NCBI RefSeq assembly: GCF_030684315.1
Contig: NC_081357.1
Location: forward strand, 95,038,930-95,102,929
Length of the DNA: 64,000 bases
Direction: 5' to 3'
Source of the DNA: Stegostoma tigrinum
Lineage: Eukaryota
The position numbers and the translations under genes were made by a program. The notes beneath the pieces were generated by a model, which was given only the letters and a program-made list of their open reading frames with translations, searched no databases and was not told the origin of the DNA. Shown here one piece after another: positions 37,900 to 64,000 of the stretch (the stretch's first letter is position 1; the number at the start of each line of letters is the position of its first letter).

Positions 37900-38582
37900 G
37901 CCATCATAAGGATTCCACGCAAGTTAACTTTTGGTACTTTTAGTTTGAAAATTATCGCTCCACAACAGATCATCTTCCTCTCCTTGTTGAACATGCTAAT
38001 CCACAGTTTTGAAACAATCTGATGCTATATTGTGCCTTAATAACAACTCACAATCTGATGACAAAACTCCAAGCAGGATTCCGTGTGAAGAATTTTTTTT
38101 CTTCTTGATCAACCATCCAATGATTTCATTTGGCACGAACATGATCCTCGAATGTCTTGTGGCTGCATACACTTAGGTTTATTTCTTAGTCAGTGCCTCT
38201 TTGTCTCAACAGTTATATGGAATCCGAACATGTCCTACACTAGTCAGCCATGTCCTTTATTCAGGCACCTTAGTCAGACAAAGAAGCACTGACTAAGAAA
38301 TAAACCTAAGTGTATGCAGCCACAAGACATTCGAGGATCATGTTCGTGCCAAATGAAATCATTGGATGGTTGATCAAGAAGAAAAAAAATTCTTCACACG
38401 GAATCCTGCTTGGAGTTTTGTCATCAGATTGTGAGTTGTTATTAAGGCACAATATAGCATCAGATTGTTTCAAAACTGTGGATTAGCATGCTCAACAAGG
38501 AGAGGAAGATGATCTGTTGTGGAGCGATAATTTTCAAACTAAAAGTACCAAAAGTTAACTTGCGTGGAATCCTTATGATGGC
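37900..38582. repeat. Long inverted repeat, 307-bp arms, 69-bp spacer
   Basis: 37900-38206 is the reverse complement of 38276-38582; two mismatches seen by eye. Confidence 0.95.
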
Positions 38583-39909: not shown

Positions 39910-40205
39910 AGGGGAGATGATGGCCTAGTTGTATTATCTCCCCTATGGTAGATGGTGGAATTTGAATTCAATTTTAAAATAAACTGGAATTAAAAGTTTA
40001 ATGATGACCCAAATCCGCTGTTGACAAAAAACCCATCTGGTTCACTAATGTCCTTTAGGGAAGGAAACTGTCATCCTTACCTGGTCTGGCCCACATGTGA
40101 CTTCAGACCCACAGCAATGTGGTTGACTTTTAATTGCCTTCTGGGCAATGAGAGATGGGCAGTAAATGCTGACCTAGCCAATGATGCCCTGATCCCATGA
40201 ATAAG
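39910..40205 (+). mobile_element. tRNA-derived SINE with L2-type 3' tail
   Basis: GGGGAGATGATGGCCTAGT head (A-box-like), recognisable shark SINE body, tail GGGCAGTAAATGCTG...CCCATGAATAA. Confidence 0.7.
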
Positions 40206-42097
40206 AAAAGAATTATTAATTTGTTCCTTGGTCATAAAGCAATAATAAATAAGATAAATACTTTTGCTTATCCAGATACGTATCTTTCATGTTCCGTTTC
40301 CCAAAATTCAGTCCTAGAAGGATGCTGTAGGTTGCTTTGGATTGCTTCAGCATTTCTAGACAATTGGTGTGTATGAACAATAGATTTCCACACAGGGAGG
40401 CCACCATTATATCCTTTGAAATACAGTGCCCAAATTGAATGCACTAGACTGAGTGGAACTAAACTCTAAACTGCATTGCAACTTCCGTCTCTTAGTAAAC
40501 CAGCTTCTTTAGGCCACTGGTCACCATACTGTTAGTCTGTTTTGATTTTGCTTGTCACATGAATACTAGCCTTTAATGATTTCGGTATTTGGTCTCAAAT
40601 CTCTCTACAGTTCCTAGTTTGTACACCTTTAGGAAATACTTTAATTTATCTACCTTAGATTCAAAATGAACAACTAAACACTAGTTCAACTTTCTGCCCT
40701 CTCTAGCCTGATTTGTTTAAAATGACCATTGATTGAGAGTAATTCTATACAGACCCATTAGATCACAAGGGCTGGAAATTTGAGCCAGTAGGAATCTAAT
40801 TTGTTTCTTGGATAGTGTCTTTGTAACTTTAAAGGTTGAGTAGAGAAGGCTAATGAAACTATCGGAGAGACAGTAGCGTAGCGGTTATGTTATTAGAATT
40901 AGGTGGTCTTTAAACTCAAGTCTGTGACTGTTGGTCCCTAAGAGCATGTGCAGTCAACATGATTAATGTAAAAAGCATATAAAGAAAAACAGTTAAAAGC
41001 TACTTTTTTTGCTGTCCTTCCTCATTATGACGTTCCATCCTTCAGATAAGATGTGAAAACCTGAGTCCCTTTGCCTTGTCTGCCCTTTCAGGTGAATGTT
41101 AAAGATCTCACTGCACAATTTCAAAGAGGAACAGGGAAATTCTTCCTATTGTCTTTTCAATATTTATCCCCCAATCAACATCACTAAAATGGTGAGGATA
41201 CAGTCACCATTACAACGCTTTTGCTACTGTCTTGCAGTACAGAACTTGTTTGCTATATTTCCTACATTTATAAAGTTGAAAGACTAACTCGTTGGTCGTA
41301 ATGCACTTTTCGGTGTCCTAAGGTTACAAAAGGTGTTATAGAAAGTGAATCTTTCGTTTCGACTGCGAGTCCATAAACCACAGTTTGGAGTGCAGTTGCC
41401 CTTATGCTGTTTTTTTGCAAGGAAAATCTAACACTAATGCCCTATAATAAAAGCAAAACTCTGTGGATGGTAAAAGACAGAAATAAAAACAAAACATCAG
41501 AAACACTTAGCAGGTCTGGTGACATCTGTGGAGAGAGAACAACAATCAATGTTTTCAGGTCAATGACCATTTATCAGAACAAATTCTACATTGTTGCTTT
41601 TCCCACAGCCTTGTCTCTTTATCTGCTTCAAATATTTAAGCATCTCCCTGTTTTCTGTCTCTGTTTCATTTTTCCAGTCCATATCCAATTTCTCTGCACT
41701 CCAGTTTCTCTCACCACAAGCTGCCTCACAGTGGAATGTGAGTGTGTTCGTGTGCTAGCTTAAATAAGCTCTGGAGGTATTGCTGTGGGATTAATAGTGG
41801 ACATTCACTTTTACCCTGAGTGCTACAAATGATATGAAGTCCTCAGAAACAGGAAAAACCAATGTTCTTGCCTGTTCAGCTCCCAGACCTATCTGTTTGT
41901 CAGAAACTAAGATGTAACAAATTCTTGAACACTTTGAGCCTCTGTTTTATTTTAGTGGAAATCAACACGTTCCTCCCAGAAACTCAGTAATCAAATTGTA
42001 GAAATGTGATAAGACAGACATGTGGTTATACAGGAACTTACATGTGTCTGCTGTTATTAATTGCCATATTAAATGTCCTTCATTACTTCATGTCCAG

Positions 42098-42217
42098 GGT
42101 ATAGATGTTCCACAAGAAGCATGGTATTGGTTACCCACTTCCATCGATGATGATGATGATGATGGAAAGGAGGAGGAAGAAGAATCAAGTGGACGGGATT
42201 ATGAAATGTTTCGCACA
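42098..42217 (+). CDS. GPATCH11: GPATCH11 coding exon 6 (GIDVPQEAWYWLP, acidic tract)
   Basis: ccag| acceptor, ACA|gtaaag donor, 120 nt; WYW motif followed by a D/E run. Confidence 0.92.
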
Positions 42218-43937
42218 GTAAAGCAATTTTTGTTTTATCAAATCTTATTACAAGCTTTATTAAAGATTGCATACGATAATTAAGACAAGAAATCATCTTG
42301 AAGAACACCTTTTTCTAGTCTCTCTCCCTCTTCTTTCCCCCTTACCCCCATTCCAAATAAGAGTGCGTGGATATTTGGTGAAGGAACCTAAAGGGGTTAG
42401 GTTGTGGTTCCAACTCTGTAATAGGCTACTGGTGGTCACCATCAAAGCTGGTATAAGCAACGGTCACTGGGACAGGGACTCGGTGACAAGACAGCATTTT
42501 CAGGAGTACAAGCACTAAACTGGAGAGGAGCAAAATATCCTGATTGTTCAGGACTCTTCTGATGTGAAACATCAAAGTTCCTCCTCCTCCGATGCTGCCT
42601 GACCTGCTGTGTTCCTCCAACTCCACATAGTGTTGTCTCTGACTCCAGCAGCTGCAGCTCTTGCTATCTCATCCTGATAGTACATATGTTTTTATTTATA
42701 TCACTGTCATATGCACAACTTGTTAAATTCTGTGTGTCAAACCCATTAGTGCTTTATTGGAACTACATGCGCCTAGTTTTGTGCCTTTTGTGTGCTAATC
42801 CTGATGGTTTGGGAACAATTGAATTTGCTGCTGCATTGGAGCCCACTCATTCTCATTGAGCTGAGAGTGAATGTTCCCAGCGATGATTTGAGAGCAACGC
42901 TGGTGAAATACAGACAAAGGCTCAATTCAAACAAAATGCTGTCCCGAATGTTCTCCATTTTTCTTTCTTTGTTCTGTACAGTTTTTTTTTCATGTATAGT
43001 TCCTGTAAGATTGCTCATGGTCATGGCAGTCTCATCTTAAAGATTGCATGCACCTAGTTTGTTGCACTGCACGATAGATTACAATCACCACCTTCACTGG
43101 CCTCAACTCAAACAATAACACCAATCCCTTCATTGAACCCATCCATATTTGAGTGATCAGCACTGTTTCTTCAGAGGTTTGGGGATTCAAGTCCTCCATC
43201 ATTTCCTTAAGCACAGAATGTAGGCTAATATTCTGGTGAAGCAATAAGGGATGTTGCAGTGTCAAAGGTGTACTTTTTGTCTGAGAACTTAAATAAGAAC
43301 CCATCTCCCTACATAGGTAAATGCAAATAATTTTGTGGCATTACTTTGAGAGCAAGCTAGAAGAATTTTCCTGGTGACCTGGCCATATGTATCCCTCATC
43401 CAACATCAGATTGATTATTTATGACATTGCTGTTTGTGGAGTCTTGCTGTGCACAGTTTCACTGTAGCATTCACTGTCTTCTAGCATTAACAAGTGTCCT
43501 CATTAAAACAATGCACTTCAAAAAATGACTGAAATGCTATGGAAACTATTTAGCTCACGAAAGCTGATTTTTAAATGGATATTCTTTTGAACCACTTGAT
43601 TCTTGGCTGTTGTCATCGTCCCACATTACAATTCACACTGCCTAAGACCCTTAAGACAAGAATTGTTCCCTTCATTTTCAGTAGGAACAGAGTGAATTAC
43701 CGGGTCTGGTGTAGGAGAAGGCGATATATTATTAATCTAGAGTGGGAGAATGCAGTGAGTGACCATATCAGGATCACAGGAGTACAATGCGTTTTCACAT
43801 CTGCAGTACAGGAGCAGTGGAGCGCAGGAATGCAGTGAATGATTCCTTGTGGATTGCAGGAATATGGTCTGTGATTAAGTCACAATTTCCTTTGTTGAAG
43901 GTAAGCTTGTTAATTGAAAGTGTTTTCTTGTTTTCAG

Positions 43938-44019
43938 ATTGAGGAAAAACTGCTGATTTTGACCAGCTATCTCAGGAGAAAATACTTCTACTGTGTCTGG
44001 TGTGCAATTTCTTACCAAG
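43938..44019 (+). CDS. GPATCH11: GPATCH11 coding exon 7 (IEEKLLILTSYLRRKYFYCVWCAISYQ)
   Basis: ttttcag| acceptor, G|gtaaaa donor, 82 nt; YLR...YCxWC motif of the C-terminal domain. Confidence 0.95.
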
Positions 44020-45309
44020 GTAAAAATACACAGTACCTACTTTTAGAAAGTTTCTCAATAGGTGCATATTTGCTTTTATTCCAATTCTACAGAATCAAAG
44101 TATTTTGGCTTGTATGGTTAAATGTAGAGTTGAGTTGATTTCCCAAAAATTGTGTTCTGAAAACGTTTTAAAAAATTTCAGCTGCATAAATGTCCCTCAG
44201 CCCAGTATAATTCCAAACACTGGGGTCTTCAATAGCAACTGTATTTTGAATATCCCTCATTTGACAAATAGTCCAAAGCAGTTTTCCTGTTTTAAAATGT
44301 ATTCTACCTAGTACATTTTTTTAAATCCACTCAAGACTGGACTGTTTTTATGTTACATTTTTACATGAACTCACTATCCTGAAACAACTTATAGCCAATT
44401 TTCTTTTTTTTTTAAATGCAGCCAACACTTTTATAGAGCTTAGGACCTAAGTTCTAATGGCTTGTCTGTCAGTATTGGGGAGGAAGGAGTGAGAAATGCC
44501 CTAGAAACCAGATTTGGATATAAACAGAAATCATAGAGGATTGCAAAGCAAAATTTAAGAGTCCCTTTCACTGGGATGTGCTTATTTCTACAGCTTCTGC
44601 CTTGACACCCCTCCCAACCCCTCTTCTCTCAATTAAGACACCATTCCAGTTCTTAATTTCACCCATCTCATCTTGTCCTACATAGCAGATGGAAGCAATC
44701 CCAGTCCAAATGCAACCGGATTGGCAGTAACATCCTTAGCTTGAGCTGTAAAGAGGCAAATAATATTCACACCACACAAATGCCAGGCAATGACCATCTC
44801 CAATAACATATAATCTAACCACCCTTGGCACTCAATGGCATTACCATCACTGAATTCCTTACTATTAACATCTTGAGACTTACTATTGACCAGAAACTCA
44901 ATCAGACTCACCATATAAAGACAATGGCATCAAGAGGCTAGGAACACAGAAACAAGTACCTCATTGCCATCTTCTCAAAAGCAACCAGACAATAAATACT
45001 GGCCAGCAAGCAATTCCCAGGTCCCACAAGTGAATTTTAAAAATGCTATCATCAAACATCCTGTTTCCTCCCTGTTCTTTATCTTGTCCAGTGGCATCAT
45101 TTCACGTCATTCATTCAACAGAATAATGCCACTTTTGAACTGCCTCCAACACCACTGTATTGTTCTTAAATGTGGAGACCAATACTATACATAGTACTCT
45201 AGGTGCACCCTCACAATGCCCTGTACAGTTGTAATAAGACAGTTTTAAATTCCAACTCCTTAGCAATAAAGACCATATACTCCCATTAGCATGTTCCTTC
45301 CTTGTACAG

Positions 45310-46235
45310 TCATAGTCCTACTACTCAGTAATTGACTCTTTAGCCCATTCGTTCATACTGACCTGACATCCCGATCTGACCTAGTTGACCCTCCCTCATT
45401 TGCCAGCATTTGGCCCATATCCCCTAAATCCTTCCTCTTCATCTACCCATCCAGATGCCTTTTAAATGTCATAATTGCACCTTCCTGCAGCAGCTCATTC
45501 CATATACACACTACCTTTTGTGTGAAATATTGCCTGTCAGGCCCTTTCAAAATCTTTCCCCTCTCACTTGAAACCTGTGCCCTGTAGTTTTGGACTCACC
45601 CACCATAAGAAAAAGACATTGGCTAGTCATCCTATCCATGCTCCTCATGATTTTATCAACCTCCATAAGGTCACTCCTCAGCCTCTGGCGCTTCAGCCTC
45701 TCCCTATAACTCAAACCCTCCAGTGCTGGCAACATCCTCGTAAATCTTTTTTTGCACCCTTGCAAGTTTAACAACTTTTTTGCTATAGAAGGGCAACCAG
45801 AATTGTGTACTATATTCTAAAGTTCAGCAACACTCTCCAGGTCCCTGTCATTGCCTGTTTAAGCTCTGCCATGGTTTGCTTACCAAAATGCAATGCCTCA
45901 CACTTACCTAACTTAGATTCCATCTGCCACTGTCAGCCCATTGCCCCACTGATCAAGGATCCTTTGTACTCTGTACTCTGAGATAATCTTCATGGACCAC
46001 CACACCACTTAATTTGGTGTCATCTGCAAATTTATTAACTTTACCTCCTATATTCACATTCAAATCACTTATATACACAATGAAAAGCAGTAGACCCAGC
46101 ACCAATCCTTGCGGCACGCTGCTGGTCACAGGCCTCCAGTCCAAAAAGCAATTCTCTACCACCACCCTCTGTCTCCTACCTTCAATCCAATTAGCTCGCT
46201 CTCCCCGGATCCCATGTGATCTAATTTTACTAATC
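45310..46235 (-). mobile_element. CR1 LINE 3' fragment
   Basis: VPQGLVLGLLLF...KFADDTK; RFTRMLP. Confidence 0.85.
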
Positions 46236-46785
46236 AGTATTTATACTATCCTTCACCAGGAAGACCAATGCAGAGTATTGCTTTAAATTACCTGCTATTT
46301 CACTTTACCTTGTTACTGATTTCACTGTCACATTCTCTGAAAAATTCTCAACCAGAAATTTGAGAGCAGCTGCTTTAGAAGAGCTAATGGGCACTGCGAC
46401 CAGAAACACAATATAAACGTGAGAAACTGTTTTCCCCCAGGCCACAAAAATAATACATGGCCCCAGTGACCTACTGTTACATGGAACTGCTGCAATCATC
46501 CAGATCCCCAATAGAAGATAGAAGGACCCCTTTGTTGAGGGCCTATCACTGAGGATCTCTGCTGCCGAAAGGTAGAATGTATACCAGGGTATACCTGAAT
46601 GATGGACAAAGGAGAATTACAACAGTGACTACGTTAAAAATATACCATTGGGCTGTAAAGTCTTTGGGATGTATTGAGGTATGAAAGGCACTGTATAAAA
46701 GCTTTTGCTTATTTCCTTTTGATCCACTTCCTGGACAAAAAAATGTACCATCAATTTTGAAAATGTTGCTTCTGGCTTGTTGCAG

Positions 46786-46841
46786 ATGAGGAAGACCTAT
46801 CTGATAACTGTCCTGGGGATTGTGCTGCTGACCACTGCTGA
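46786..46841 (+). CDS. GPATCH11: GPATCH11 last coding exon (DEEDLSDNCPGDCAADHC*)
   Basis: tgcag| acceptor, TGA at 46839-46841; the exons sum to 819 nt = 272 aa plus stop. Confidence 0.94.
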
Positions 46842-47237
46842 CTGATGAAGCACAGTACAGAGCAAACAGAAATAGCATTGGTGGTGGCATGGCACTGCAC
46901 TGCACTTCCGAGACTGGCATGGAGTGTTCTGAATATGAGAAAAAACTTCTAATACTCAATTGTCAATTCTGAGCTGGTGTTGGCGATGTGTTCTCCAACT
47001 TGTATTTGAAGAAAATGAACTGAATGATGCCATTTTCATTGTGATACTGGACTGTCATCTTTACAACCTTTTGATAGATGGGCAACTGTACATGTAAAAT
47101 ATTTGTACTTTTGACATTTTATTTTAAAGTACCTCTGTATTTAATGATTTATATTGTGTTCCTTTATTTGCCTGAAAATAATTCACTGGGTATACTTCCC
47201 TTGACCTTATGAAATTCCACATTGTGGATCAAAGTCT

Positions 47238-47243
47238 ATTAAA
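47238..47243 (+). terminator. Candidate GPATCH11 polyadenylation signal ATTAAA
   Basis: ATTAAA ~400 nt after the stop in a U-rich 3' UTR, just before a CR1 insertion. Confidence 0.4.
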
Positions 47244-47298
47244 TTTCAATCCCTGCAAAGCACAAATTTTTGTGCTCTGAAATGAAGGCAGATGCAAC

Positions 47299-47815
47299 TA
47301 GAACATAGAACAATACAACACAGAATAAGCCCTTCGGCCCTCGATGTTGCGCCGACCTGTGAACTAATCTCAGCCCCTCCCTCTACACTATCCCATCATT
47401 ATCCATATGCTTATCCAAGGACTATTTAAATGCCCCTAATGTGGTTGAGTTAACTACATTGGCAGGCAGGGCGTTCCAAGCCCTTACCACTCTCTGAGTA
47501 AAGAACCTGCCTCTGACATCTGTCTTAAATCTATCACCCCTCAATTTGTAGCTATGACCCCTTGTACAAGATGAAGTCATCATCCTTGGAAAAAGACTCT
47601 CACTGTCCACCCTATCTAATCCTCTGATCATTTTGTATGTCTCTATTAAATCCCCTCTTAGCCTCGTTCTCTCCAATGAGAACAGACCCAAGTCCCTCAG
47701 CCTTTCTTCATAGGGCCTGTGCTCCAGACCAGGCAACATCCTGGTAAATCTCCTCTGCAGCTTTTCCAATGCTTCCACAACCTTCCTGTGATGGGGTGAC
47801 CAGAACTGCATGCAA
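47299..47815 (-). mobile_element. Young CR1 3' fragment (same subfamily as 29044-31438)
   Basis: QFWSPH...RRFTRMLPGL...RGHSYKL; agaacatagaacaata tail. Confidence 0.9.
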
Positions 47816-50800
47816 TAAATCAGATAAAATGTAAGAGACCCCACAGAGGCAAGGTAGCTGATGAGGCATGTTTGGTAAAATATGGTGAGAATTCCTACCG
47901 GGTCTAATCGCAAGAATCCCTCCAAAAAAACTCAACTTGCCCTTAGCCAAAAAAAGGTAAGATTTAGCTCATAGACTTGGTTTGTGCAGAAAGTTTATTG
48001 ACTATGCTTGTTGGATAGTTCTCTCTCCTAGTCTCAGGTGTTCTACTTTTATATATCATACTGAAATCAATCAATTAAATGCTAAAAAGTTTTCATTCTA
48101 ACCTTAATACTTGCTGTATTCTCAGATTTCCATTGTCTCTTTAAATATATTTTTTACTTGTATCCAATCCTTAAAATTCATGAAAAATTTGTTTGCGTTC
48201 TATATTTTGCATTGTAATTCATATCAACCTTCCAAATGCCTCCTCTTTTTTGACGAAAAATGTTGCAACATGTTCAGCTATAAAGCAATCCAAACAGACA
48301 TTTGACTTTCCGTGTTCTTATAACAAATGTCCTTCTTTGAGGACATCTAATAATTTCCCAGTACAAGCGTTCTTTTTGTAAAATAATCAGACCCATTTTA
48401 TTTTAGAAATCTCTTTTCTTTCCAAAACATTCTTAGATCAAGCAAGGTCAATTCTCAACTTTTTCCTCTCTAACACCCTTTGCTGAAGGAGCATCATTCT
48501 AAAAATAATGATTATCCATTTTATGGCTTGTTTCTTGGATAGGATTTCCTTCTGAATAATAGACAAGTGTCTATTGCTCACCATAGAGCCAGTTTTTCCA
48601 CAGCTAAAACTGTGTAAACTAGCTTTTTTTTAGATTCCCAGGGTAATGGGCAGCGTATATTATTCATTCCCAAGAATATGATAAAACCTGCTAAATTAGA
48701 ATATCCATTTGGAAGACTGGCATGTGAAACATTGCTAAAGGTGGTGAACTTCATGTCTTGCTCTCCTTATGCCCAATTTGGTGCCCACTACATTTTCATT
48801 TATTAACCTCTGTACCAACTCACTAGGTATCGAACACAGGCAGACCTCAGGATCCACACCTTGATGAAATGGAAAAAAATTCTCTATTTGTTACAGACAT
48901 CATTATCTTTAAATAAATTCATGAAAACCTATTACATCTAAATCTAATACATCTAAATCCTCTTAAATACTTAATCTCTTATTAAAACAAACATTTGCAT
49001 TCATAACCCCACATCCATGACAGCTAATTCTTTAGCAACCTTTTTTAAACCTGCCATTCAAAGTGTAAGTTCACACTCCACTCCCCACTATGACAATAAC
49101 AACGTGTGGAAGCTGTCACCAGCAATAATGCTACAATGATAGCACTTAACATGTCAACAAACAGTAATTGAAACTGCTCAAACTAGTCTTTTTTTGCTCA
49201 TAAAAACACATGCAGGCAGTTTTCATTTCAGAGGATGAGGGATTAAAATCATTTGATAGCCTCACAGTTTTAGATGCCTCTTTAACATTAAAGTCACAGA
49301 ATGCTCAATGCCTTCTAAATGAGATCTAATTTCACTGTGCACTGAGTTTCATCAGCCCAGCAGATTTGCACTTTATGCCTGTGCATTTCCCCAGCCAAGA
49401 GGAATGGTCTTTATTGGAAATGGGGAAAACGTTTCATATCCGGGGGCTGTCTGCAACTTTTAAAGGTCTGATGGAGTCTTCATGACTTTGAAAGTCTGGG
49501 CCGATGTCTCTCTTTGGATGTCATCGTTGACCAACGATTCTAACACTTCGTCAATTGCTAAATGGCCTATAGCTCCCTGAAATAGTTTTAATACCCACTT
49601 TGAAGAAAGAAATTAGTTTTGCTGCTTGCCAATTCTCCAGCACTATTCCTGTCTTTATTGAATTTTAAATTTAAATTGATTCAAATGTATCTGTTAATTT
49701 ATTCTTGTGATCTGCAGGCAAAATCACCAGAATCTAAGGCTTAAATGAGAAAAGTCAAACTATCTTTCTTGTCTTCAACTCACAATGCCACAAGTCACAT
49801 CAGGGAATCTATCATGTTAAAATATTGTTTGTGCAATATCAATAGCTGTTATTTATACAGTAAAACTGCCAATTTTCCCACTTATAAGTCCAATATTCCT
49901 GGACAAGTATCTGCTTATGACCTCTCCAGTCACTAACTGAAATACTTACAATGTAGTTAAATTCCCAATAATCCTTTTGCTCCCCTGAATGCAGCATTCT
50001 GTTTTTTCTAAAACACCCTCTCTCAATCTTTAGTTGAAAATTAACTTTTCACAGCAGCATGGAAAAACAAGTTAATGCCCCCATTAAAATTAATGCCACA
50101 TAAACACATTAAGCATGCATACATTAATACCAAAGAGTAATGTCCAAGCTTTATCCCCTCATCTGCAGCATACTTTCGGGAGTCCACACATCATTTCCTC
50201 AACTGTAATGACCAAGTCAACATTGTTCTACAGTCACGGCAGGCATCATCTGCTCTTCACAAATTAACATTGGTACTTCCCCATGAACTCAGACTTTCTG
50301 AGGATGTAGTTACTGATATGAGACCAATAGTTACATTTCTGGTTCCAGCCAGGGCAAAACCTTGTTCAGAAACGAACTCTGCACTTGGTACATTTAGCTA
50401 TCTCAGAAAGGTTAAAAATAAAATGTTTGGCTAGTTGTGGTGGAAAATTAACAGCCCTCTAAATAAGGATAAGATGATTTACCTGACCACTTGAAAACCC
50501 TGGTTTGACACCGACCAGAATTCACACTTGATCCAAAGTCAAACTATGCTAGACAAAACCCCTCTCCCAAACTACACAGTCTCCGACTCCACTCTCTTTT
50601 CTGGATAGTGCAAATCTGAATTTAATGTCCAACCTTTCAGTAATAGATCACTTTGTAATGGCACTTAATTTCCAATGTGAATGTATCCTATTTAATTAAC
50701 GTTTTCTCTAATTATGGCCTCCTGCAGTTTTTAAACTCTCTGTTTGTCCTACTTGAAGCAGCAAAATGTAAACCAAACCTAACACATGCCAATCTACTCA

Positions 50801-51459
50801 CTAAAATAATGTGAAATCAGATTTTTAATTATTAAGCTTCATGACCTGAGGCAACTTCTTCAGCTAGGACACAGGAAATAAACAAGGTGAACAGGTGTTG
50901 CGGTGAATGTCAAAGAATTCACAGTTCTGTGTCTGGAACATCAGCAATCTTTTCTTTTTGGCCAAATCAATGATAATTTGTCTACCAACGTCTTCTCATC
51001 TATTTCCAAGGTTGATATAAAGCGACAGCAGGGCTATTTCGAATTGACTGATAAATCTGTCAGCTCTTTGGACAGTCTTAACACTTGTCAATAACATGAG
51101 GCAACAAAAAAGCAGCTGCAAGCCACCTGGTTTCATTTTTAAGATTGTCGCTAAGTTCTCTGTGTAACTTAAATAATGTACAAGGTGAGTTTCTCTTTAA
51201 GGAACCAGCAGAAACACAATGGGACAAATTACCTTCTTCTAGACTGTAAAATGCTAAGATTCCCAAAAGTTTTAGGACCTTGGGTACCGATATATAATTG
51301 CCACAAACCTTTTTGATTTGTTGAATTATAGCTTTTGATACATGATTTCCTGAACAACTGACACTATATTTCTCTTTCCACTTTTTAACAACCCTCTGTA
51401 TGTTCCTTTGCAACTGCATATGAGTTATTTGAAATCATGAAAAGATTACCTTAAAAGGA

Positions 51460-53566
51460 ACTTCATGCCACATCAATCAGGCCTTCAGTTCTGTGTATAT
51501 TGGCAACTTCGATTCGAGCAGAATTTGCTTTATGCACCAATACTTTGTGCTTCATTTTATACCGGTAAGCAGTTAGCAATGCAGACCACTTTTTAACATG
51601 CTGGCTACTGCCCAAATGTTGTAAAGGTAAATGGCTCATGTCCAGCTTTGTGAATGACAGCCCCACCCCCATAAGCTTTGCATATAAATCCTGCATGTGA
51701 GGGTTTGGGTATTTATCCAGCTGCAAGAGGTTGTCTACCATTTCTTTAAAATCCCCACACAGGTATACTAACCAGTCAGGCTTCACAATTGGCATGACCA
51801 GTGCATCCAACTGTGCCAACTGTACTGGAGTTTGATGATTCCTTCACTTTCCAGCCTCTGAATTTCGGCCTCTACTTTTACCTGTAAAGCAAATAGTACT
51901 GAGCACTGGTTTTCTGAAGAAGGGTCTAGGCCCGAAACGTCAGCTTTCCTGCTCTTCTAATGCTGCTAGGCCTGCTGTGTTCATCCTGCTCTACACGTTG
52001 TTATCCTAGCACTGGGCAGGCCTTGCAGAATCATAAAATTGCTCTTGGTCCCTATGTAAAGTGGCTTTGGCTCCTTTGATAGTCTCTAGACCTTCCTGAA
52101 AAATATCTGGGTTAATTAATTAGAACTTCACTCAGGCAGCTGTTTTCTCATCAAAATGTTGAGCCAATCAATGTGAGTTTTTCTCAACCAACTTATTCCC
52201 GTTAGGTTTGGGCCGAAGCCTTTTACTACAACCAAACCGGTTGCTTCTTACACAAGACTGAGACCAAAATTGCACCTTTAATCTATAAGGGTTCTCAGTC
52301 AAGCTAAGGTATTATGCAAACTTAAGTGCTGGAGTCTAGAGTGAATTTTGTTAAAGACTGGTTCTGCACTCTGATACAACTGCATCAGTACCAACCTCCA
52401 TTAGAACTGGGTGACCATTTAGCCAGATGTTTATTTTGATTGGTTCTGATTTGGATGTTGCAAAGCAATTAACTGTTTCAACTCAGAAGTAGGTGGATAC
52501 TGTTCTGGATGCTGGCGTACGAGTTCTCTAACTCAATTCAGGCCCAGTGGGACTCCCTAGCTGTCTCAAGTCTGCATGTGGGCAGCAACTACAATGGCTT
52601 GCCAGCCTAGATCCTGAAGAAAATGTTAACTGTTTGGCTGAGGCTTGGCTTTGTTTTGGGGTTTTGCAGTGGGCTGACTTAACATCCATCTATTCAGAGC
52701 ATGTCCTGAGTGAGACTGTACAATTGCCTTGACTGGTGTCCTCCAGGTCAGTTGGGCTAGCAAGGGACTCACATACTTTTTAATTAGTCTGTTCCCCTTG
52801 CTACATTTTCTACTGACAAAGCCAGTTGTGGTAGCTGTTTGAAGTTCAGTTGGACTTCATCTAATAAGTGCTTTTTGCATGATACTGTCATTAATCCCAC
52901 ATACCAAACAGTCTCGCAGCATCCCATTAAGGGTTAAATCAAATTTGTGTGCCTTTGCCAGTCATCTGAATGTTGTCAAAAATCCCAATATTGAATCCCT
53001 TTAGTTCTCAAATTGCTGAGTAAAACTAATGGCATCTCAGAAATAGAGGAGGCTTGGGATTGTAATATTCCTTAACTAAATCCATCAATTCTTCAAAGGT
53101 TTCAGTATCTGGTGCCTCAGGAAACATTAGGTTCCTGATAGCCAAAAATGCTGTGGTACCACAAGCTGTCAGGAGAATTACTCAGTGCTTTTCATCTGCT
53201 CCAGTGTCATTTGCCTGGGAATAACAATATTCTCCCTATATACTGGGCCCAGTCTTTGACATCAGGATTGAATGAGTCAAGCTCAACAAATAATGGCATT
53301 GTGCCAGGAATGCTTACCCCAATTCAAAAGTAAGCTAATTTCTTCAGAAGCATATTTTTAGTCTCTTATTGTCACTGAAATAACTTCACAGAGGCCGGTA
53401 TCCTGTCACCAATTCAACCCCTATTTATACATGGACAGTACCTGACACCAGTCTGGCTTTCTGAGAGTGAGCAGAACCTCTGAGACTCCTGCATATACCT
53501 GTCTGATTATCAGTCCCAATCATGGAACAAATATTCTATGAGATCCACCTGGTTGACCTCATTACA
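51460..53566 (-). mobile_element. Truncated Ty3/Gypsy LTR retrotransposon (5' LTR ~53376-53566, gag, protease, RT remnant)
   Basis: LTR begins TGTAATG on the minus strand; gag-like MPLFVELDSFNPDVKDWAQY; protease-like LNGHPVLMEVGT; RT LCGDFK...DKYP...FTKLDMSH. Confidence 0.8.
51910..52007 (+). mobile_element. Solo Penelope terminal segment with hammerhead core, inserted in the Gypsy element
   Basis: CTGAAGA-AGGGTCTAGGCCC-GAAACGTC at 51914; TSD AGCACTGG at 51902-51909 and 52008-52015. Confidence 0.8.
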
Positions 53567-53605
53567 ATCTTTGGAACTAGTGAAACCATAGAACAGCACT
53601 AGGAA

Positions 53606-53855
53606 GAGATAATGGGAACTGCAGATGCTGGAGAATTCCAAGATAATAAAATGTGAGGCTGGATGAACACAGCAGGCCAAGCAGCATCTCAGGAGCACAA
53701 AAGCTGACGTTTCGGGCCTAGACCCTTCATCAGAGAGGCTCTCTGATTGTTTCAATCAGAGGCTCTCTGATGAAGGGTCTAGGCCCGAAACGTCAGCTTT
53801 TGTGCTCCTGAGATGCTGCTTGGCCTGCTGTGTTCATCCAGCCTCACATTTTATT
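53606..53855. mobile_element. Young palindromic Penelope-derived element with two hammerhead cores
   Basis: 93-bp perfect arms 53645-53737/53763-53855; 14-bp TSD AACAGCACTAGGAA (53592-53605, 53856-53869). Confidence 0.88.
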
Positions 53856-54350
53856 AACAGCACTAGGAACCTGGGTTTGATTCCGCCCTCGGGCAACCGT
53901 CTGTGGAGTTTGTGCATTCTCCCGTGTCTGTGTGGGTTTCCTCCCACAGTCCAAAGAAGTGTAGGGTAGGTGGATTGGCCATGCTAAATTGCCAATAGCG
54001 TCCAGGGATATTTAGGTTAGATGGTGAAATGCAGGGGTAGGGGAGTGAGTTGTGGTGGGATGCTCTTTGGAAGGGCGGTGTGGACTTGTTGGGCTGAATG
54101 GCCTGTTTCCACATTGTAGGATTCTATGGAGACCATACCAACTCTCTAAAGAGCATCGTACCTAGGACCCCCCCACCAAATGCCTGCACTTCCCATGGCC
54201 ATCCCAGCTCACCTGCACACCTTTGGATTGTGCGAGGAAACCCACACAGACATGAGGAAAAAACTTGTAACCGCTACACAGTCGCCTGAGGCTGGATTGA
54301 GCTCAAGACTCTGGCATTGTGAGGTAGCAGTGCCAACCACCGAGCCACTG
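53856..54350. mobile_element. Two HE1/V-SINE-like SINEs, tail-to-tail
   Basis: Plus copy: GGTTTGATTCC B-box-like, TGTGGAGTTTG...TGGGTTTCCTCC core. Minus copy ends at a tRNA-like head (CAGTGGCTCGGTGGTTGGCAC). Confidence 0.7.
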
Positions 54351-56267
54351 TGATTTTCCCCTGGAATACTGCAAGCTGTTTTTGGTTCCCTTTATCTAAG
54401 GAAAGCTATACTGATACTAGAAGCCATCAGAGAAGGTTCACTAGACTGATTCTGGGAATGAAAAAACTGTCTTACGAGTAGAGGTTGGATAGGTTCGGCC
54501 TGTATTTGTTAAAATATAGAAGAATGAGAGGTGACCTTTTTGAAACATACGTGATTCTTATGGGACTGGACAACATTGTACATGTGGAAAGGTTCATTTC
54601 CTCTTGTGGAAGACTCTAGTTCTAGAAGGCATAATCTCCAAGCAAGAGGTTAAACATTCAAGAAACAGGTATGGGGGAATTTATTCTGAGTGTAGTGAAT
54701 ATGTGGAATTCTTTATCTCAGATGGCTTTAGAAGCTAGGTTGTTTCCCGTAAGCAAAAAAAAACTAAAATCAATTCTTATAACTGAAAGCAAGCTGAATA
54801 GTCTTGAATGTTCACTCTGTATTTGTAAACATCTCACCAATGCAAACACATTGCCGTTATCAGCCCTGATCGTGTCTCATATACACACTCATTTTAGAAA
54901 AAGATTCCAGAGATATTGAGAAGTTGTTGATAATGGACAAACTAGCAATGTGAAGAAATTCCCACTCTTTTGAGATTGCAGAGACATCAAGGTAGGAGGT
55001 ATTCAGTCTCCCGGCCCATCCACTCCCTCTCATATGACCGATTACATCCTTTTTTCTTCATTTAACTTTTGAATCAAATTCACTTTTTCTTCTTTCTGTG
55101 GGGGTGTATTTAGAGAGAGGTTGCAGGGAGCTGTTGAGTGGTGGATCCAGTCCATTCCTCGTGGCCATGGTAGTAATTGTTTCAGCAACTGTTCCAGCGT
55201 TGATGGGTTGGGGCCGGTTCTTTTCCTTTGGTGTTTTGGCAGCATCTGCAATTGCGGCAGAGTGAATGATCCTTTGATCCTGGGGAGTTCATTTGGATGG
55301 TGTGTCGGTCCTTGGAAGCTGAGAATGGACAGCAGTCTGTGAAAGTTGGGACAGTCTCCTGGCTATGGCGGCAGCTGGAGTATCAGTGATGATCAGGTAC
55401 CTTTGGCAGAGATGGTGTTGGGTCAGCAGGGGGTTACTTCAGTGTGCTTCCTCCTTGGTGTTGCAGCCTCATGGACAGTTTTGACACCTGCAGAGTAAGG
55501 CACATCAGGTAGTCACTTGTGAATTCAAGAAGCCATTGTTGGAACAAAAACATGAAATTTGTCTTGACTTAGTATGTATTATTTCTTTTTTATAATTTAT
55601 GTAATTAAAATGGTGCCAGATTAATTATGATGACTTAGGCATGTTTTGGCAGTATTTTTCATAAATACATGTAACAGTAAATTACTATGATAATAATATT
55701 ATATTTGCTACTACCCAATACCCAATGATCTACACATGACCACACTGTTTTGATTTGATGTATTGTCACATGTACCTAAGTACAGTGAAAAGCTTTGTTT
55801 GTGAGCAGTACAGGCTGATCATAGTAAGCAAGGGCATACAGATTATAGGGTGAAAAAGAAACTTTGACAGAGGAAGGTATACAGGTTACACTGCAAAGGC
55901 TGTGTGATAAGCAAGTTCAACATAAAACAAGACCAGCATTGTTTTAAGTTAGAGAGTCCATTCATTAGTCTATGTCGACTGTCTCCCTTTGTTTCTCAAG
56001 GTGGCATTTCAAAGATCTTTGTCAGCTGGTGGGTATCAATTTGCAATGGGTCAGTGATGATGCTTCTTGTGTCGCTAATCCTTCACATCTAACTTACCCG
56101 TTGTCATAAAGTGGACCAACACCTTCATCAATACTCTTCCTGACAGGAGGTGTCAGCTGAAGAGAAAATTAGTGGCATGTAGTTGGGATTCCATCCTTTG
56201 GAAAGGGGCACACATGGAACCAAAGAGACCTTGAAATATGAGATAACAAGGTGTAGAGCTGGATGAA

Positions 56268-57260
56268 CAGTTACTAGTGGTGTACCGCAAGGGTCAGTGT
56301 TGGGCCCACTGCTGTTTGTCATTTTTATAAATGACCTGGATGAGGGCGTAGAAGGATGGGTTAGTAAATTTGCAGACAACACTAAGATCGGTGGAGTTGT
56401 GGATAGCGACGAAGGATGCTGTAGGTTGCAGAGAGACATAGATAAGCTGCAGAGCTGGGCTGAGAGGTGGCAAATGGAGTTTAATGCAGACAAGTGTGAG
56501 GTGATGCACTTTGGTAGGAGTAACCGGAATGCAAAGTACTGGGCTAATGGTAAGATTCTTAGTAGTGTAGATGAGCAGAGAGATCTCGGTGTCCATGTAC
56601 ACAGATCCTTGAAAGTTGACAGGGTTGTTAAGAAGGCATACAGTGTTTTAGTTTTTATTAATAGAGGGATCGAGTTCCGGAACCAAGAGGTTATGCTGCA
56701 GCTGTACAAAACTCTGGTGCGGCCGCACATGGAGTATTGCATACAGTTCTGGTCACCGCATTATAAGAACGATGTGGAAGCTTTGGAAAGGGTGCAGAGG
56801 AGATTTACGAGGATGTTGCCTGGTATGGAGAGAAGGTCTTACGAGGAAAGGCTGAGGGACTTGAGGCTGTTTTCATTAGAGAGAAGAAGGTTGAGAGGTG
56901 ACTTAATTGAGACATATAAAATAATCAGAGGGTTAGATAGGGTGGATAGGGAGAGCCTTTTTCCTAGGATGGTGACGGCGAGCACAAGGGGGCATAGCTT
57001 TAAATTGAGGGGTGAAAGATATAGGACAGATGTCAGAGGTAGTTTTTTCACTCAGAGAGTAGTAAGGGAATGGAACGCTTTTTCTGCAACGGTAGTAGAT
57101 TCGCCAACTTTAAGAACATTTAAGTCATGATTGGACAAGCATATGGACGTACATGGAATAGTGTGGGTTGGATGGGCTTCAGATCGGTATGACAGGTTGG
57201 CACAACATCGAGGGCTGAAGGGCCTGTACTGTGCTGTAACGTTCTATGTTCTATGTTCTA
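56268..57260 (+). mobile_element. Young CR1 3' part with open 277-aa RT C-terminus, nested in a Penelope terminal segment
   Basis: ORF 56297-57130; (TTCTATG)n tail; closely similar to 23339-24325 in reverse complement. Confidence 0.93.
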
Positions 57261-57880
57261 ACACAGCAGGCCAAGCATCATCAGAGGAGCAGGAAAGCTG
57301 ACAGTTTGGGCCTTGACCCTTCTTCAGAAATGTGTGAGGGGAAGGGGATTCTGAAATAAATAGGGAGAGACAGGGAGGCAGATACAAGATGGATAAAGGA
57401 GAATATAGGTGGAGAGGAGACAGACAAGTCAAAGAGGCAGGGATGGAGCCAGTAAAAATGAGTGTAGGTGGGGAGTTAGGAAGGGGATAGGTCAGTCCAG
57501 GGAGAACGGACAGGTGAAGGGGGCGGGGTTAGATTAGTGGGTAGGAGATGGGGATGGGGTTTGAGGTGGCAGGACGGACAGGTTAGGGTTGCGGTCGGTG
57601 GAGGGGAGATTCTGAAGCTTGTGAAGTCAACATTAATACCATTGGGCTGCAGGGTTCCCAAGCAGAATATGAGTTGCTTTTCCTGCAACTTCGTGTAGCA
57701 TGATTATGGCACTGCAGGAGGCCCAGGATGGACATGTCGTCTGAGGAATGGGAGGGGGAGTTGAAATACTTTGCGACTGGGAGGTGCAGTTGTTTATTGC
57801 GAACCGAGCAGAGGTGTTCTGCAAAGCGGTCCCCAAGCCTCCGCTTGGTTTCCCCAATGTAGAGGATGCCACAACGACCT
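57260..57880 (-). mobile_element. Penelope-like element 3' fragment (GIY-YIG and terminal segment)
   Basis: CGILYIGETKRRLGDRFAEHL GIY-YIG motif in ORF 57583-57906. Confidence 0.85.
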
Positions 57881-58289
57881 TGAAATAAAAACTGCATGGC
57901 CTCCAATAAAGGAGGGTGTGCACTTCATGGGATAGCAGATCAAGTTCCTTGCCAGTGAACACTATCCAGGAAGCAGCTTTTCCCCACAGAAAAGAAGTGG
58001 TGGAGGTGATGATTTTTGACACCCTGACTGGTAGTCCGCTGGGAAAAGCCACTCCCTATAAGTTTGGCATTGTGTCTGACACTTCCTTCAAACAAGTTCA
58101 GCCAGATGAATTCCAATGCCTCTTCCCCAAAAACTCATACTGTATTAAAACACGCTCCTTTCATTAAACACCCACTCTAAATCTACACCCTCCCTTGCAT
58201 CCATCCCCCTTCATTCCGCTCCGTGTTTGCAATGTGAGCCACGCAGTGGTTCCAGCTCTGATCCTTAAAGGCCTCTCTCAGTAACGCTG

Positions 58290-58422
58290 CAGGAAAGCGA
58301 AAGTAAAAGGAGCGGAGGCCGAGAAACGAAACTCTCTTTCCGACTGAAGGAAGAGACAATTTGCGTTCACGGTCTCCACTGCGAGAGTCAAGAGATTGCT
58401 GCTGTGAGCGCTGACGGTGAGT
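58290..58422 (+). promoter_or_regulatory. Interferon-responsive promoter and probable non-coding first exon (likely PKR/EIF2AK2-family gene)
   Basis: GAAAGCGAAAGT (58293-58304), KCS-like AAGGAGCGGAGGCC (58307-58320), ISRE GAGAAACGAAACT (58321-58333), local CpG enrichment, donor ACG|GTGAGT at 58416/58417. Gene identity is inferred from synteny and motif similarity only. Confidence 0.65.
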
Positions 58423-59476
58423 TTTCCTGGGGCTCTGAACGCATTACAGAATAATGTTATATTACACACACCGGCCGAAGCTTTACGGGGCACGCACCGT
58501 GGGTTCGGCAGGGGTTGCAGTATGACTCAGCTTTCAAAAATCTTCTTACCGATTAGTTACTTGATGGTGAATATTGTTTTACTGTCACCTCCGTTACAGT
58601 GGACTCTGAGTCGCAGGTTAGGGATTTAAGTCTTTCCTTCAGAGACTGAGTACAGAATTAAGGCTGACACCATCACTGTTAGTCTCTCAGATGAGACATT
58701 AACCCGAGGCTGGACCGCTCTCCTAGTTGGAACAACTGGGAGATGTGTATCTTTTCACAACCCGTTACCGGTCCCTTGGCCTTCTGCAGCTTTGTAAATG
58801 TTATCGCTGTTACATAGGAACAGGGCCAGACCATCCCATGAGCGTATGCATGGTTTACTTCATATCCCTGCTTTTCCCCATCTTCCTTACATTTTCCTCA
58901 AAAATCTGTCAATTTCTGTCTCGTTTAAATCACTTTGTATCATTTCGATTGCCTGTTGCTGAAGATAATTTGAAATTTCTAAGGCCCTGTTGAAGAGTAT
59001 CCTCATCCCTCTGCCGCAAGTCTAGCTCAGAGAGCCCCCTGTGCAGACAGAAGCAGAGTTAAAGTTTCAAATCCAGTGACCCTTTGTCAGAAGGATCATA
59101 ATCTGAAGGGTCATTGGACTCAACTATTTGCTCTGCTTTCCTCTCTCTCTATACAGATACTGACAGATCTGCTGAGTTTCTCCAGCACTTGCTGCTCGTT
59201 TCAAATTTCCAGCATCTGCAGTACTTTTATTAAGCTGTTTTATGTTGTTTGTATTATTGCTTTTTTATTGCAGTCTTAAATAGAGAATTGAAGGAAAAGA
59301 AATTGATCTAATATATCTGTAGAAATAACCTATATATTTTCTACACTAAACATGTTCTTATCAAAATGATCCTGGCGTTTCAATGTGTTAACTGGAACAT
59401 TTGATTGTAATGAAGGGAAATCCTTTATTAGTTTGTGAGTGTCTGAATTCTGCACATTCAGCAATGTTTCAATTAT

Positions 59477-60860
59477 TGGTGGGGAGCATTAATTGACATC
59501 ACATGAAAAGGGTGTGCTGATTGGCTGGCCAGATTATGAGCCCAATGAATCATCTTAAATTGGTTTTTAGCGTAATTGTTGTCACACTCAGGATTGTTTG
59601 TAACTGCTATCTAATCTTCTAAACCAGCCACATTCCTGTTCCATATAATACTACCTAGCTCCCTGACTCATTTCCTTGGGTGTAGAGGGACTAGTAAGGG
59701 GGAACAAAAATCTTGAGATCTCTTCAAATCTGATATTTTCTTTTATCTGAAATTTGATATGTCACAATGAGACCACAAGAAATTGGAACGGGGTAGATGA
59801 TTCAATCTGTTGAGTCTGTTGTGCCATTCAATGGGATTATGAGTAATGTCCCCTTGGGTAATTTTCCTCATGTCTGCTTTCCTGTCTTTTCCCTCTAATC
59901 CTTGATTCCGCTACTGATGAAGAAACTATCTCAGCCTCAAATTTTCATAAGGACTCCGTCCACACAACTCTGTGTGGCAAGGAGTTCCAAAGATTCTCAA
60001 CCCTCTGAGAGTTTGAGGGTGAAATATTGGCCAGGATATTGCACTGCATTTCATGACGTTCTTTACATTGTGTGTATAGGATCTTTTATGTCCACTCAAG
60101 CAGGTAGACACTTGAAGGTCTGATTGAAAACATAAGAACTGTGATAGCACACCTTGGATGTGACAGCCTCGAAGATACACTCACCTCTCAGTATGTGGAT
60201 TGAACTCTCGGCCTTTGGAATAAATTTAACTCTGGGTTTAAAATCCATGTTTAGCCTTTGCTTTGCCCTAGAGCCAAGTCAGGCCAGGAAAATACTTTGC
60301 AGGATGCCTAGCTTGTAGCGTGAATGAATTTTAAAGAATATTGCACGAGAACTGATTTATCTTTCCAAATCAAGGCATTAGTAAATACATTTCCCTGTAT
60401 TTTACACAAACAAATACTCCTACCAGGACTCCTAACAGCTGTAATGAGTTTTATAAGAAGTGTTTGGAAAAGTGGTGCATCCAGTTTACAATTGCCTGTT
60501 GCCATCTATGTAAGGGAGATGATTTAGATTTGGATGAAAATTTGCAGTGGGCAATATTGGATCTGCTGCCTGTTGTACATGACTCCTAGTTTCATTTCCT
60601 GTGGAAGTCACAAGGAAGTCTGATATTAATACTTCACTTCTTTGTAATGACAATTCTTGGTTGGTGAGAAAGAGACAGTCTGTCAAAACCTTTTGTCTCG
60701 CAGTCATCAGAACAGACACAAGAATTCCAAAGTTTAATGGTGGGGAGCACTAAATGACATCACATATGAAAGAAATACTGATTGGCAGATTGTGAGCCCA
60801 ATGGAGCATCTTAAATTGGTTTTTGCATAATTGTTGTCACACTCAGGATTGTTCAGTAAC
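59477..60860 (+). repeat. Diverged ~125-bp direct repeat pair (59477-59604, 60738-60860)
   Basis: Shared TGGTGGGGAGCA..TGACATCACAT..CTGATTGG..GAGCCCAATG..CATCTTAAATTGGTTTTT..TAATTGTTGTCACACTCAGGATTGTT. Confidence 0.85.
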
Positions 60861-61956
60861 AGATATCAAAACAGGGATTTATATGTATCATTGGAACATT
60901 ACATTCTGTGTTTTACAAACATTTTGTGAGTTGAGCATGTCCAGTACTCTGCCTACTGCAAGGGAATGTGATGTTTAATACAACTCAACAGTCATTGGGA
61001 TATGGGGCCCAGATATGTTAGCATTACACCGGCACTGAAATTCACATAACTGCATTACTCATTTGTGTGTCATGAAGAAAGCAGCACAAGCATCTGTATG
61101 GAAAACCATGTTCCTGTCTTGATTGCAATCCTATTAATGGAAAATATCAGTTATAGTATTACTTCATAATAGTAGCATATAATAACTGTTTTTACCTGTT
61201 ACTCAGATTTTTGAACTAGCTTACCGTTCCAGAATATTTTAAGATAGTCAAGATATTTCAGATCTCAAACTGATGGCCTTAGCCCCATTTGAAAGATTTG
61301 TAATAGACAGCAGGTAATAATGTGATTACAATAACCACTAAATTGCATTATAGCTTTAATGTACCCCATTTTGACACCCTACTTTTGTATGGTGAGCAAA
61401 TAGTTCAGGCCTTTTTAACAAGGCTTCCAGTAAGGCAGAAAATATCCATATGCCGGGATCTGTTTTCTACAGGCATAATAGACAGGTCCAGACATTGTGC
61501 CTTTCTAAAAAGAAAAGTATGAGGAAGCAATGGTTCTTTGCTGCACTCCCCATTGCAATGCCAATAATCAGAATCAACTTGCTAACCAACCGGCATTCTT
61601 TCCCCATGCAATGCAAATTGTTGCTCCCTTTGATTTTGGGAATTCTTGTGTTTGTCCTGCGAGATGAAAAGCTTTGACAGCTAATGAGTGTTGAAATGTG
61701 GAAGTTTGGCAAGCTGATGCAGCATAATCACATTCAGATGTGTTTAGTCTTCAGCTTTAATAGATCCGTTATATTGAGTGATTGAAAGGATTAGATCACT
61801 GTTGGTGCTAAAGAACAAATTCTAAGGGATTCAATATGAACCAAAGGCCTATTAAGTATCTGAATGCTTTGCCAATAATGACAGGTAACAGAGGGTAATT
61901 TTGGGATTCAGACTCTAAACTAAACTTCAAAGAAAGAAAATTCTTGGGATAACCTT

Positions 61957-63614
61957 GAGGTTGTAGCCTTGCTCACTGAGCCAGTGTGTTTGATTGCAGA
62001 TGTTTCATCATCCTGCTAGGTAACATTGTCAGTGCTTCCAGTGAAGCGTTGGTGTTCTGCCTTGCTTGGTATGTATATGCCTGTGTTTGCTGGGGTGGTT
62101 GGCATCACTTCCAGTTCTGTTTTTCAGTGGTTTGTATATCGGGTGCAATTCAATGTGTTTCTTGATGGAGTTCAGGTTGGAATGCCAGGCCTCCAGGAAT
62201 TCCCTGGCATGTCTCTGTTCCTGTTTCTCTATTAAATGCTCCTGTTATGCTTCGCGCAGACACCAGAATTGAAGAGGATGAGATAATGAAATTGTTCAAC
62301 ATAACAGCACTATTTACATCCATAACCATCGACCTAGCTGAAGAGACAATTGCCACACTGCTGGACAAATTAGAAAGGCGGGCACCCCACGACACCAACA
62401 GGGACAAAACCCTGAACCTGCTGGATCTGTGTCTCACAACCCACTTCGCCTTCAACGACCGTATATTCAAACAAATCAACAGAGCACCAATGGCATCCCC
62501 CACATCAGGACTGATTGCAGAAGTAGTAATGCACAGCTTAGAACAGACAGCACTCCCCACTATCCAACTCAAACACTGGGTCTAATATGCAGATAACACT
62601 TTCATGATTATCAAACGCTCCAGACTAGAAGAAACCCACTGACACATAAACAACATCCTCACTGGAATAAAGTTCACGAAAGGAGAGGAGAACAATAACT
62701 GACTACCCTTCTTAGACATAATGGTGGAAAATAAGAACAACGGGGAACTCCAGACCACCCATACAGACCAGATACTCAATTACACCAGCAACTACCCCAA
62801 CACCCATAAACAGAGCTACATCAGGACATTATTCAAATGGGCCACAACACACTGCACCAATCCGGAATTGCGCAAAGCAGAACAGGAACATTTTTAAAAG
62901 GAATGGACATCCAAAAAGCACAATCTGCCGTTACTGCAGCAACAGACCACAACAAGAAGACACAACACGGCCAGACACACTAGTCACCCTACTGTACATC
63001 AGGGACATATCAGAGATGACCACAAGACTGCTCAGACCCCTAGATATCAGGGTAGTCCAAAAACCAATAACCACCCTGCGACAGCTACTAACAAACGTAA
63101 AGGATCCCATACCCACAACCAATAAAACTAACGTAACATGCAAAATACCATGCAAGGTCTGTGAGAAACATTACATAGGCCAAACCAGAAGAAAATTGAC
63201 AATAAGGATATAAGAACATCAGCTAGCCACCAAGAGACACGACCAATTCTCACTGGTCTCAAAACACACAGACAAAGAAAGAAATGAATTTGACTGGGAC
63301 AACACATCCATAATAGCACCAGCCAAACGCCGGGGAATTCCTGGAGTTATGGCATTCCAGTGGAATTCCAACAACAAACATATTGAACAGGACCCGATAT
63401 ACAAACCACTGAGGAACAAAACCAGAAGTGATACCAAACACCCCAGCAAACCGAGGCATATAAATAACAAGTGGGACAAAACATCAGCGCTTCACTGGAG
63501 GTGCACTGACGATGTTACCTAGAGGGGTGATGAAATATCTGCAATTAAATACACTGGCTGGGTGAGCAAGTCTACAACCTCATCCACAATCTGGGCTACA
63601 AATCATCTCAAAAG
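61957..63614 (+). mobile_element. Penelope-like element (second family): RT, GIY-YIG and an inverted 3' copy at its 5' end
   Basis: FNITALFTSI, QIN.APMASPTS, YADNTF remnants; CKIPCKVCEKHYIGQT; inverted terminal copy ~61957-62240; TSD GGGATAACCTT (61946-61956, 63615-63625). Confidence 0.88.
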
Positions 63615-64000
63615 GGGATAACCTTAATGGCTGTTGTCTGTCCATCCATCGGTCAAGAAAGCAATTGACTTAGATTCTTAATTTTTTTATTGCCATGTCA
63701 AGATGTTGAATGTTTTCAAGAATGAGGTATAGTTCTCGGGGCTAAAAGGATCAAAGGGAATGGAGCGACAGTGGTAATAGGTACGGAGTTTGATAATCAG
63801 CCATGATCGTATTGTATGGAGGAGCAGGCTTGAAGGGTCAAATAGCCTACTCCTACTTCCTATATTACTATGTTTAGACTGAAAGAAGACATTGAAATGA
63901 TAGCAAAAGGAAAAGGTCATTTAGTCCTTGAGCCTTCAGTTAGATCATGATCAATCACCTTGGTTATCTAACCTTAATACCACTGCCTGAGTAAAATCTA

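Follow-up and report, generated by a model that had tools for sequence, protein, structure and literature searches.

Positions 58290-58422 of the window, by which we mean the whole 64,000-nucleotide stretch of zebra shark (Stegostoma tigrinum) DNA analysed here, are probably the core promoter and non-coding first exon of the PKR gene (eif2ak2), which would read rightward in tandem behind GPATCH11 and have its coding exons beyond 64000 or in a form unrecognisable here. It is very likely that the segment is a real interferon-type promoter, and its paired ISRE-class sites, CpG peak and strong splice donor coincide far above chance. The features are as follows.

1-28300, minus strand: left-hand gene, head-to-head with GPATCH11; from its ORF translations we take it to be HEATR5B.
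28440-46841, plus strand: coding span of GPATCH11, the upstream neighbour; exons match Stegostoma tigrinum XP_048387863.1, with the Pfam domains G-patch and DUF4187.
58201-58600: CpG-rich TATA-less promoter patch (CpG o/e 0.93, GC 0.50), in single copy in the window.
58293-58304, plus strand: upstream IRF-E/ISRE with a two-base spacer (GAAA-NN-GAAA-GT), which fits the consensus as given in PMC4514678 and would be bound by IRFs.
58307-58320, plus strand: GC-box-like element; 58312-58320 resemble the 3' nine bases of KCS (8/9), homology not established.
58321-58333, plus strand: proximal ISRE with a one-base spacer (GAAA-N-GAAACT), 11/13 identical to the human PKR ISRE.
58378-58416, plus strand: putative non-coding exon 1, taken to begin with an initiator-like site 45 nt past the ISRE.
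58417-58422, plus strand: 5' splice donor ACG/GTGAGT, ranked 9 of 3391 GT sites.
58417-61206, plus strand: candidate intron 1, with T>A skew and the first plus-strand polyA hexamer at 60219.
61207-61313 (alternative donor after 61391), plus strand: uncertain candidate exon 2, with an acceptor and donors.

The motifs that the sequence-only reading had quoted were found at 58293-58304, 58307-58320 and 58321-58333, and the donor at 58416-58422. Its description of the surroundings as CpG-rich also held, since 58201-58600 contained 23 CpG and its CpG o/e of 0.93 compares with 0.27 for the whole window. The only CpG peaks in the window were this patch and the GPATCH11 promoter near 28 kb, and a CpG density as high as that of the patch was reached at 91 of 6360 sampled positions. 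TATA(A/T)A was absent from 57900-58420. Self-BLAST of the window gave no second copy of 57900-59140, and Rfam gave no matches across 46000-64000. A transposon origin of the ISREs was considered and found unsupported, as a second copy was absent within the window, to which this comparison was confined.

An ISRE/IRF-E consensus was found near the putative start above chance, with the two-base spacer at 58293 and as a one-base variant at 58321; the human ISRE used as reference was the 13-mer, and the KCS reference the 15-mer, quoted in the sequence-only reading. The two IRF/ISRE sites are on the same strand and 30 nt apart, or about three helical turns. There are eight ISRE-class sites in the window, and only those at 58293 and 58321 have at least 19 CpG around them. 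Further single ISRE-class sites flank the promoter at 60598 (minus strand) and 55852 (plus strand); they are in CpG-poor DNA and are either chance matches or auxiliary IRF sites.

We estimated how often such a cluster arises by chance in several ways. Of 300 Markov-simulated windows, one had two ISRE-class sites on the same strand no more than 50 nt apart, although this simulation undercounts single ISRE-class sites (2.5 expected vs 8 seen). When the patch itself was dinucleotide-shuffled 20000 times, two same-strand sites turned up once. Working by hand from the site counts actually seen, we put the probability of a chance pair at about 0.02. The rank of the donor at 58417 refers to plus-strand GT sites scored with an approximate self-made weight matrix, and a donor this strong is found within 150 nt of 2.6% of positions. 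IRF sites act in either orientation, and the patch is short, with a GC content of only 50%; both would suit an interferon enhancer that works in either direction, or motifs clustered by chance, instead of a promoter with a first exon. However, CpG retention, paired sites and a donor coincide here, and most of the CpG-rich stretch is to the right of the ISREs, where a first exon would be, so that we regard the enhancer or chance reading as hardly probable at all.

The anatomy of the segment is that of a promoter, with CpG retention, a first-exon donor and a directional U1/polyA asymmetry. On the plus strand, a strong donor follows the ISRE after 84 nt and the first polyA hexamer comes only at 60219. 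On the minus strand, there is a polyA hexamer at 57798, and no donor scoring at least 2 was found between 57300 and the ISRE. Leftward transcription was rejected because this asymmetry of donors and polyA signals favours the plus strand. In the unmasked bases of 58420-61200, the T>A skew was +0.082 ± 0.026 (errors binomial only). The sense-strand sign in the neighbouring genes was the same (GPATCH11, +0.037; left-hand gene, -0.047 on the plus strand), while intergenic DNA gave about +0.03 and 61320-64000, over an A-rich retroelement remnant, gave -0.19. The skew is weak evidence of rightward transcription.

Initiator-like matches were found at 58378, which would give a 39-nt leader exon, and at 58280. 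ATG is absent between the ISRE and the donor (58334-58416), consistent with a non-coding first exon. The sequence-only reading had proposed a rightward first exon behind a promoter with ISRE and IRF sites, and this is supported, with an exon that would be non-coding. By eye, an 11-nt word at the end of exon 1 (58408-58418, plus strand) recurs near 28150 (minus strand) in the leader exon of the left-hand gene, possibly by chance.

Candidate exon 2 may be a leader, a uORF or intron. An ATG at 61273 opens 13 codons in it. A search of 5.8 billion proteins gave no candidates for the encoded peptide, and its similarity to teleost PKR was no higher than that of shuffles. Its single HMMER match, to a protein made of six tandem repeats that scored 22.7 bits per copy, was rejected. 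The peptide and the 3' end of the exon (61243-61313) loosely resemble the N-terminus of catshark PKR-sis over about 6-7 residues, a likeness that was seen by eye, is unscored and is probably due to chance. Candidate intron 1 also contains two diverged copies of a dispersed repeat of about 140 nt (59473-59614 and 60734-60870). Further right, 61956-63582 is a degenerate retroelement with broken RT-like ORFs and inverted terminal arms (61956-62225 and 63312-63582, 77-88%). It gave no Pfam match, is presumably Penelope-like, and would sit in an intron of the proposed gene.

The neighbouring genes identified both the locus and the species. When a single GPATCH11 exon was used as the query, 50 GPATCH11 proteins were found among 193 candidates, with sharks on top. 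The GPATCH11 exons of the window match the Stegostoma tigrinum protein XP_048387863.1, and several residues set them apart from whale shark, in agreement with the shark origin that had been read from the sequence. The last GPATCH11 exon begins at 46786 and its stop codon is at 46839-46841, which places the promoter 11.5 kb past the stop. The left-hand gene matched only HEAT-repeat look-alikes and gave no Pfam match. One GPATCH11 intron carries an inverted repeat (37900-38206 and 38276-38582) with 307-nt arms that are 99% complementary and a 69-nt loop. In the pre-mRNA it would fold as a long dsRNA hairpin, and it is either a foldback element of recent origin or an error of the assembly. Between GPATCH11 and the promoter, the gap is filled by retroelement remnants at 51400-53300 (minus strand), 56267-57127 (plus strand) and 57586-57924 (minus strand). 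The first is presumably LTR-type, the second is a LINE RT (Pfam RVT_1) and the third is a weak GIY-YIG match (E 0.021).

No PKR kinase or dsRBM exon had been recognised in the window from the sequence, and the searches confirmed this. None of 351 ORFs from both strands of 46.5-64 kb (350 of at least 30 aa and one of 24 aa) had a dsRBM, kinase or Z-alpha match in Pfam, and the only match past the curated cut-off in this region was RVT_1 at 56267-57127. A family-motif scan of the window for PKR exons was negative. When teleost PKR was used against the whole window, by tblastn, by phmmer and as a profile of six dsRBM domains, the best E among 2803 ORFs was 3.6. As a control, 16 of 23 pieces of a second teleost PKR were found at E of 0.012 or less, which overstates the sensitivity because these proteins are closer kin to each other than to shark. 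The minus strand showed no PKR 3' exons over the 17 kb that follow GPATCH11; a shark PKR convergent with GPATCH11 could have its end past 64000.

Since neither strand of the window contains a PKR coding exon, the assignment to PKR is indirect. We used consecutive accessions as a proxy for gene adjacency, which assumes that genes side by side are often numbered in sequence and does not encode strand. In whale shark, PKR (XP_020373736.1, as listed in the supplement of PMC11305385) and GPATCH11 (XP_020373737.1) are consecutive. The same was found in catshark (XP_038656502.1 and GPATCH11 XP_038656503.1) and in bamboo shark (GCC17119.1 and GPATCH11 GCC17120.1), where the neighbours of GPATCH11 are listed only as EIF2AK proteins. 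Thus, the accessions were consecutive in 3 of 7 cartilaginous fishes, and in the other four they were 37, 273, 412 and 525 apart. The sequence-only reading had named a PKR-family gene, and this adjacency, together with the two fused teleost models described below, makes PKR the most likely member. By eye, the whale shark model XP_020373736.1 begins inside the first dsRBM, and the protein tested under this accession may miss part of the N-terminus.

The promoter might instead be a real interferon-driven promoter of another transcript between GPATCH11 and PKR, such as a PKR paralog, the dsRBM-less PKR-sis, another interferon-stimulated gene or a non-coding RNA. In line with this, the 5.6 kb that follow the donor contain no PKR coding exon, PKR is described as repeatedly duplicated in tandem in fish and frogs (PMC2291453), inverted duplicate copies are reported at the PKR locus of tarsiers (10.64898/2026.10.23.761390), and cartilaginous fishes are reported to have PKR-sis, an EIF2AK kinase without a dsRBM (PMC11305385), whose catshark N-terminus the 13-codon peptide loosely resembles by eye. 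However, catshark PKR-sis (XP_038664788.1) is about 8300 accessions away from GPATCH11, and it is another EIF2AK that is adjacent. Moreover, human PKR has untranslated 5' exons, so that 5.6 kb without coding sequence would be nothing unusual in a shark genome rich in repeats. We therefore consider a transcript other than PKR quite unlikely.

Gene order in other vertebrates bears on the direction of the gene. A search with full GPATCH11 against proteins of 497-2000 aa gave four matches among 2440 candidates; two of them had no kinase, and two were fused models, from the characiform Acnodon oligacanthus (KAL7889597.1) and the eel Gymnothorax javanicus (KAJ8248011.1), that contain G-patch, DUF4187, three dsRBMs and a kinase. 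In PDB, the Gymnothorax model matched PKR best, narrowly above PERK, and its nearest Atlas clusters were dsRBM kinases. These GPATCH11-PKR fusions are probably prediction artefacts, and as annotation errors they are worth correcting. Since such a fusion cannot otherwise arise, they indicate that PKR follows GPATCH11 on the same strand in both fishes.

Human CCDC75 (GPATCH11) is given as a plus-strand gene and EIF2AK2 as a minus-strand gene, so that the two are convergent (PMC3637798). A rightward promoter behind a plus-strand GPATCH11 is the opposite layout, as the sequence-only reading had pointed out. That reading took the shark gene to be inverted or a duplicated paralog, which found no support, since two distant teleosts also have the tandem order on one strand and neither event is needed in the shark. 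The synteny argument is thereby reversed: judging from these layouts, GPATCH11 followed in tandem by PKR was probably the arrangement of the jawed-vertebrate ancestor, and the convergent human pair is probably derived by a later inversion, which parsimony places on the line to mammals because eel and characiform share the tandem order. Alternatively, the gene is PKR and its tandem layout is a shark-specific inversion or duplicate, with the teleost layout independent. Mammals are convergent (PMC3637798) and the locus is prone to inversion and duplication, and the layouts compared were those of human, eel and characiform, plus shark if the promoter is that of PKR, with no lobe-finned fish, amphibian, bird, gar or chimaera among them. 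Eel and characiform share the tandem order, and this alternative takes two or more independent events where one would otherwise suffice; we consider it very unlikely.

The GC-rich element had been labelled KCS-like, and only part of this label stands. Its 3' nine bases agree with KCS at eight positions and it is just upstream of an ISRE, but the first six positions differ, and the best ungapped match to the KCS 15-mer is 8/15. By sequence the element is thus outside KCS, as the 15-bp element of human and mouse is essentially invariant. An ungapped 8/15 was reached by 29-34% of CpG-rich 30-mers. The local KCS score was reached by 39 of 1340 and 21 of 880 CpG-rich 30-mers (2-3%), by 292 of 22540 intergenic ones, and by 4671 of 20000 shuffles of the purine-rich 30-mer itself. 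In the window, 73 sites match KCS at 10/15 or better. The shark element and human KCS fit the GC-box consensus equally well (8/10), with AGCGG in the shark at the GGCGG core. The element directly abuts the ISRE (0 nt), whereas KCS and ISRE are separated by 4 bp in mammals. A G-to-A change at position 6 reportedly inactivates KCS, and in the ungapped register the shark element has an A there. The ADAR1 promoter also carries a KCS-like element. On these comparisons, the GC element may be a weak Sp site beside the ISRE that works like KCS. That it is a true, eroded KCS homologue seems unlikely; the composite module of Sp site and ISRE would then have driven PKR since PKR arose in the jawed-vertebrate ancestor, and would have stayed whole when the entire gene was inverted on the way to mammals. 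To a specialist, the one surprise here would be a conserved KCS, and for that claim the match found is too weak.

If the segment is the PKR promoter, the CpG patch and the GC-box-like site would give basal TATA-less transcription through Sp/KLF factors. Upon infection, IRF3, IRF7 and IRF1, together with interferon-induced ISGF3, would bind both IRF/ISRE sites and raise transcription, and the short leader exon would be spliced at 58416 into downstream exons for the dsRNA-binding motifs and the eIF2-alpha kinase. We infer this mechanism from mammalian and teleost PKR; transcription, induction, the identity of the downstream gene and the polarity of the inversion are likewise inferred. In the mammalian PKR promoter, Sp1 and Sp3 are described as acting at KCS and ISGF3 at the ISRE (PMC8297547), and IRF9 is reported to be present in sharks (PMC10107944).

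It is already known that sharks have PKR and that fish PKR is controlled by ISREs. Whale shark PKR is reported to phosphorylate eIF2-alpha and is thus a working kinase (Wu et al. 2024, PMC11305385); it is likely the orthologue of the gene served by the zebra shark promoter. In the text available from that source, shark PKR and PKR-sis are treated as proteins only, without promoters or gene order. We found no shark PKR promoter and no PKR orientation outside mammals in the literature searched, which left out most subscription papers and preprint supplements. What the analysis yields is a specific sequence to test as the shark PKR promoter. It points to interferon control of PKR through ISREs as early as cartilaginous fishes, as one would expect, but no mention of this was found in that literature.

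The EIF2AK2 promoter of human and mouse, with KCS and ISRE, was reportedly described by Kuhen and Samuel in 1997. The shark promoter is like it in having an ISRE that is 11/13 identical to the human one, a GC-box-like element just upstream, a TATA-less CpG context with a putative non-coding first exon, as in human PKR, and a position as that of the next gene after GPATCH11. It differs in resembling only the 3' nine bases of KCS, in its 0-nt spacer and one-base-spacer ISRE, in having a second IRF site 30 nt upstream, and in facing away from GPATCH11. Promoters of the IFIT family of interferon-stimulated genes are described as having two or more ISREs near the start site (PMC3688568), and the shark promoter similarly has two ISREs in the same orientation within 200 bp of the start, though sharks are absent from the survey as far as its accessible text goes. 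In teleosts, the PKR and PKZ promoters of grass carp and crucian carp are reported to need one or two ISREs for interferon induction, and the PKZ promoter to be activated by IRF3 and IRF7 (PMC7137213), PKZ itself being described as ray-finned-specific (PMC11305385). The teleost promoters differ in that the accessible account of them mentions no KCS (PMC7137213) and in that their function was tested, whereas the shark promoter is known from sequence alone. They are like it in their ISREs and, in eel and characiform, in their tandem position behind GPATCH11.
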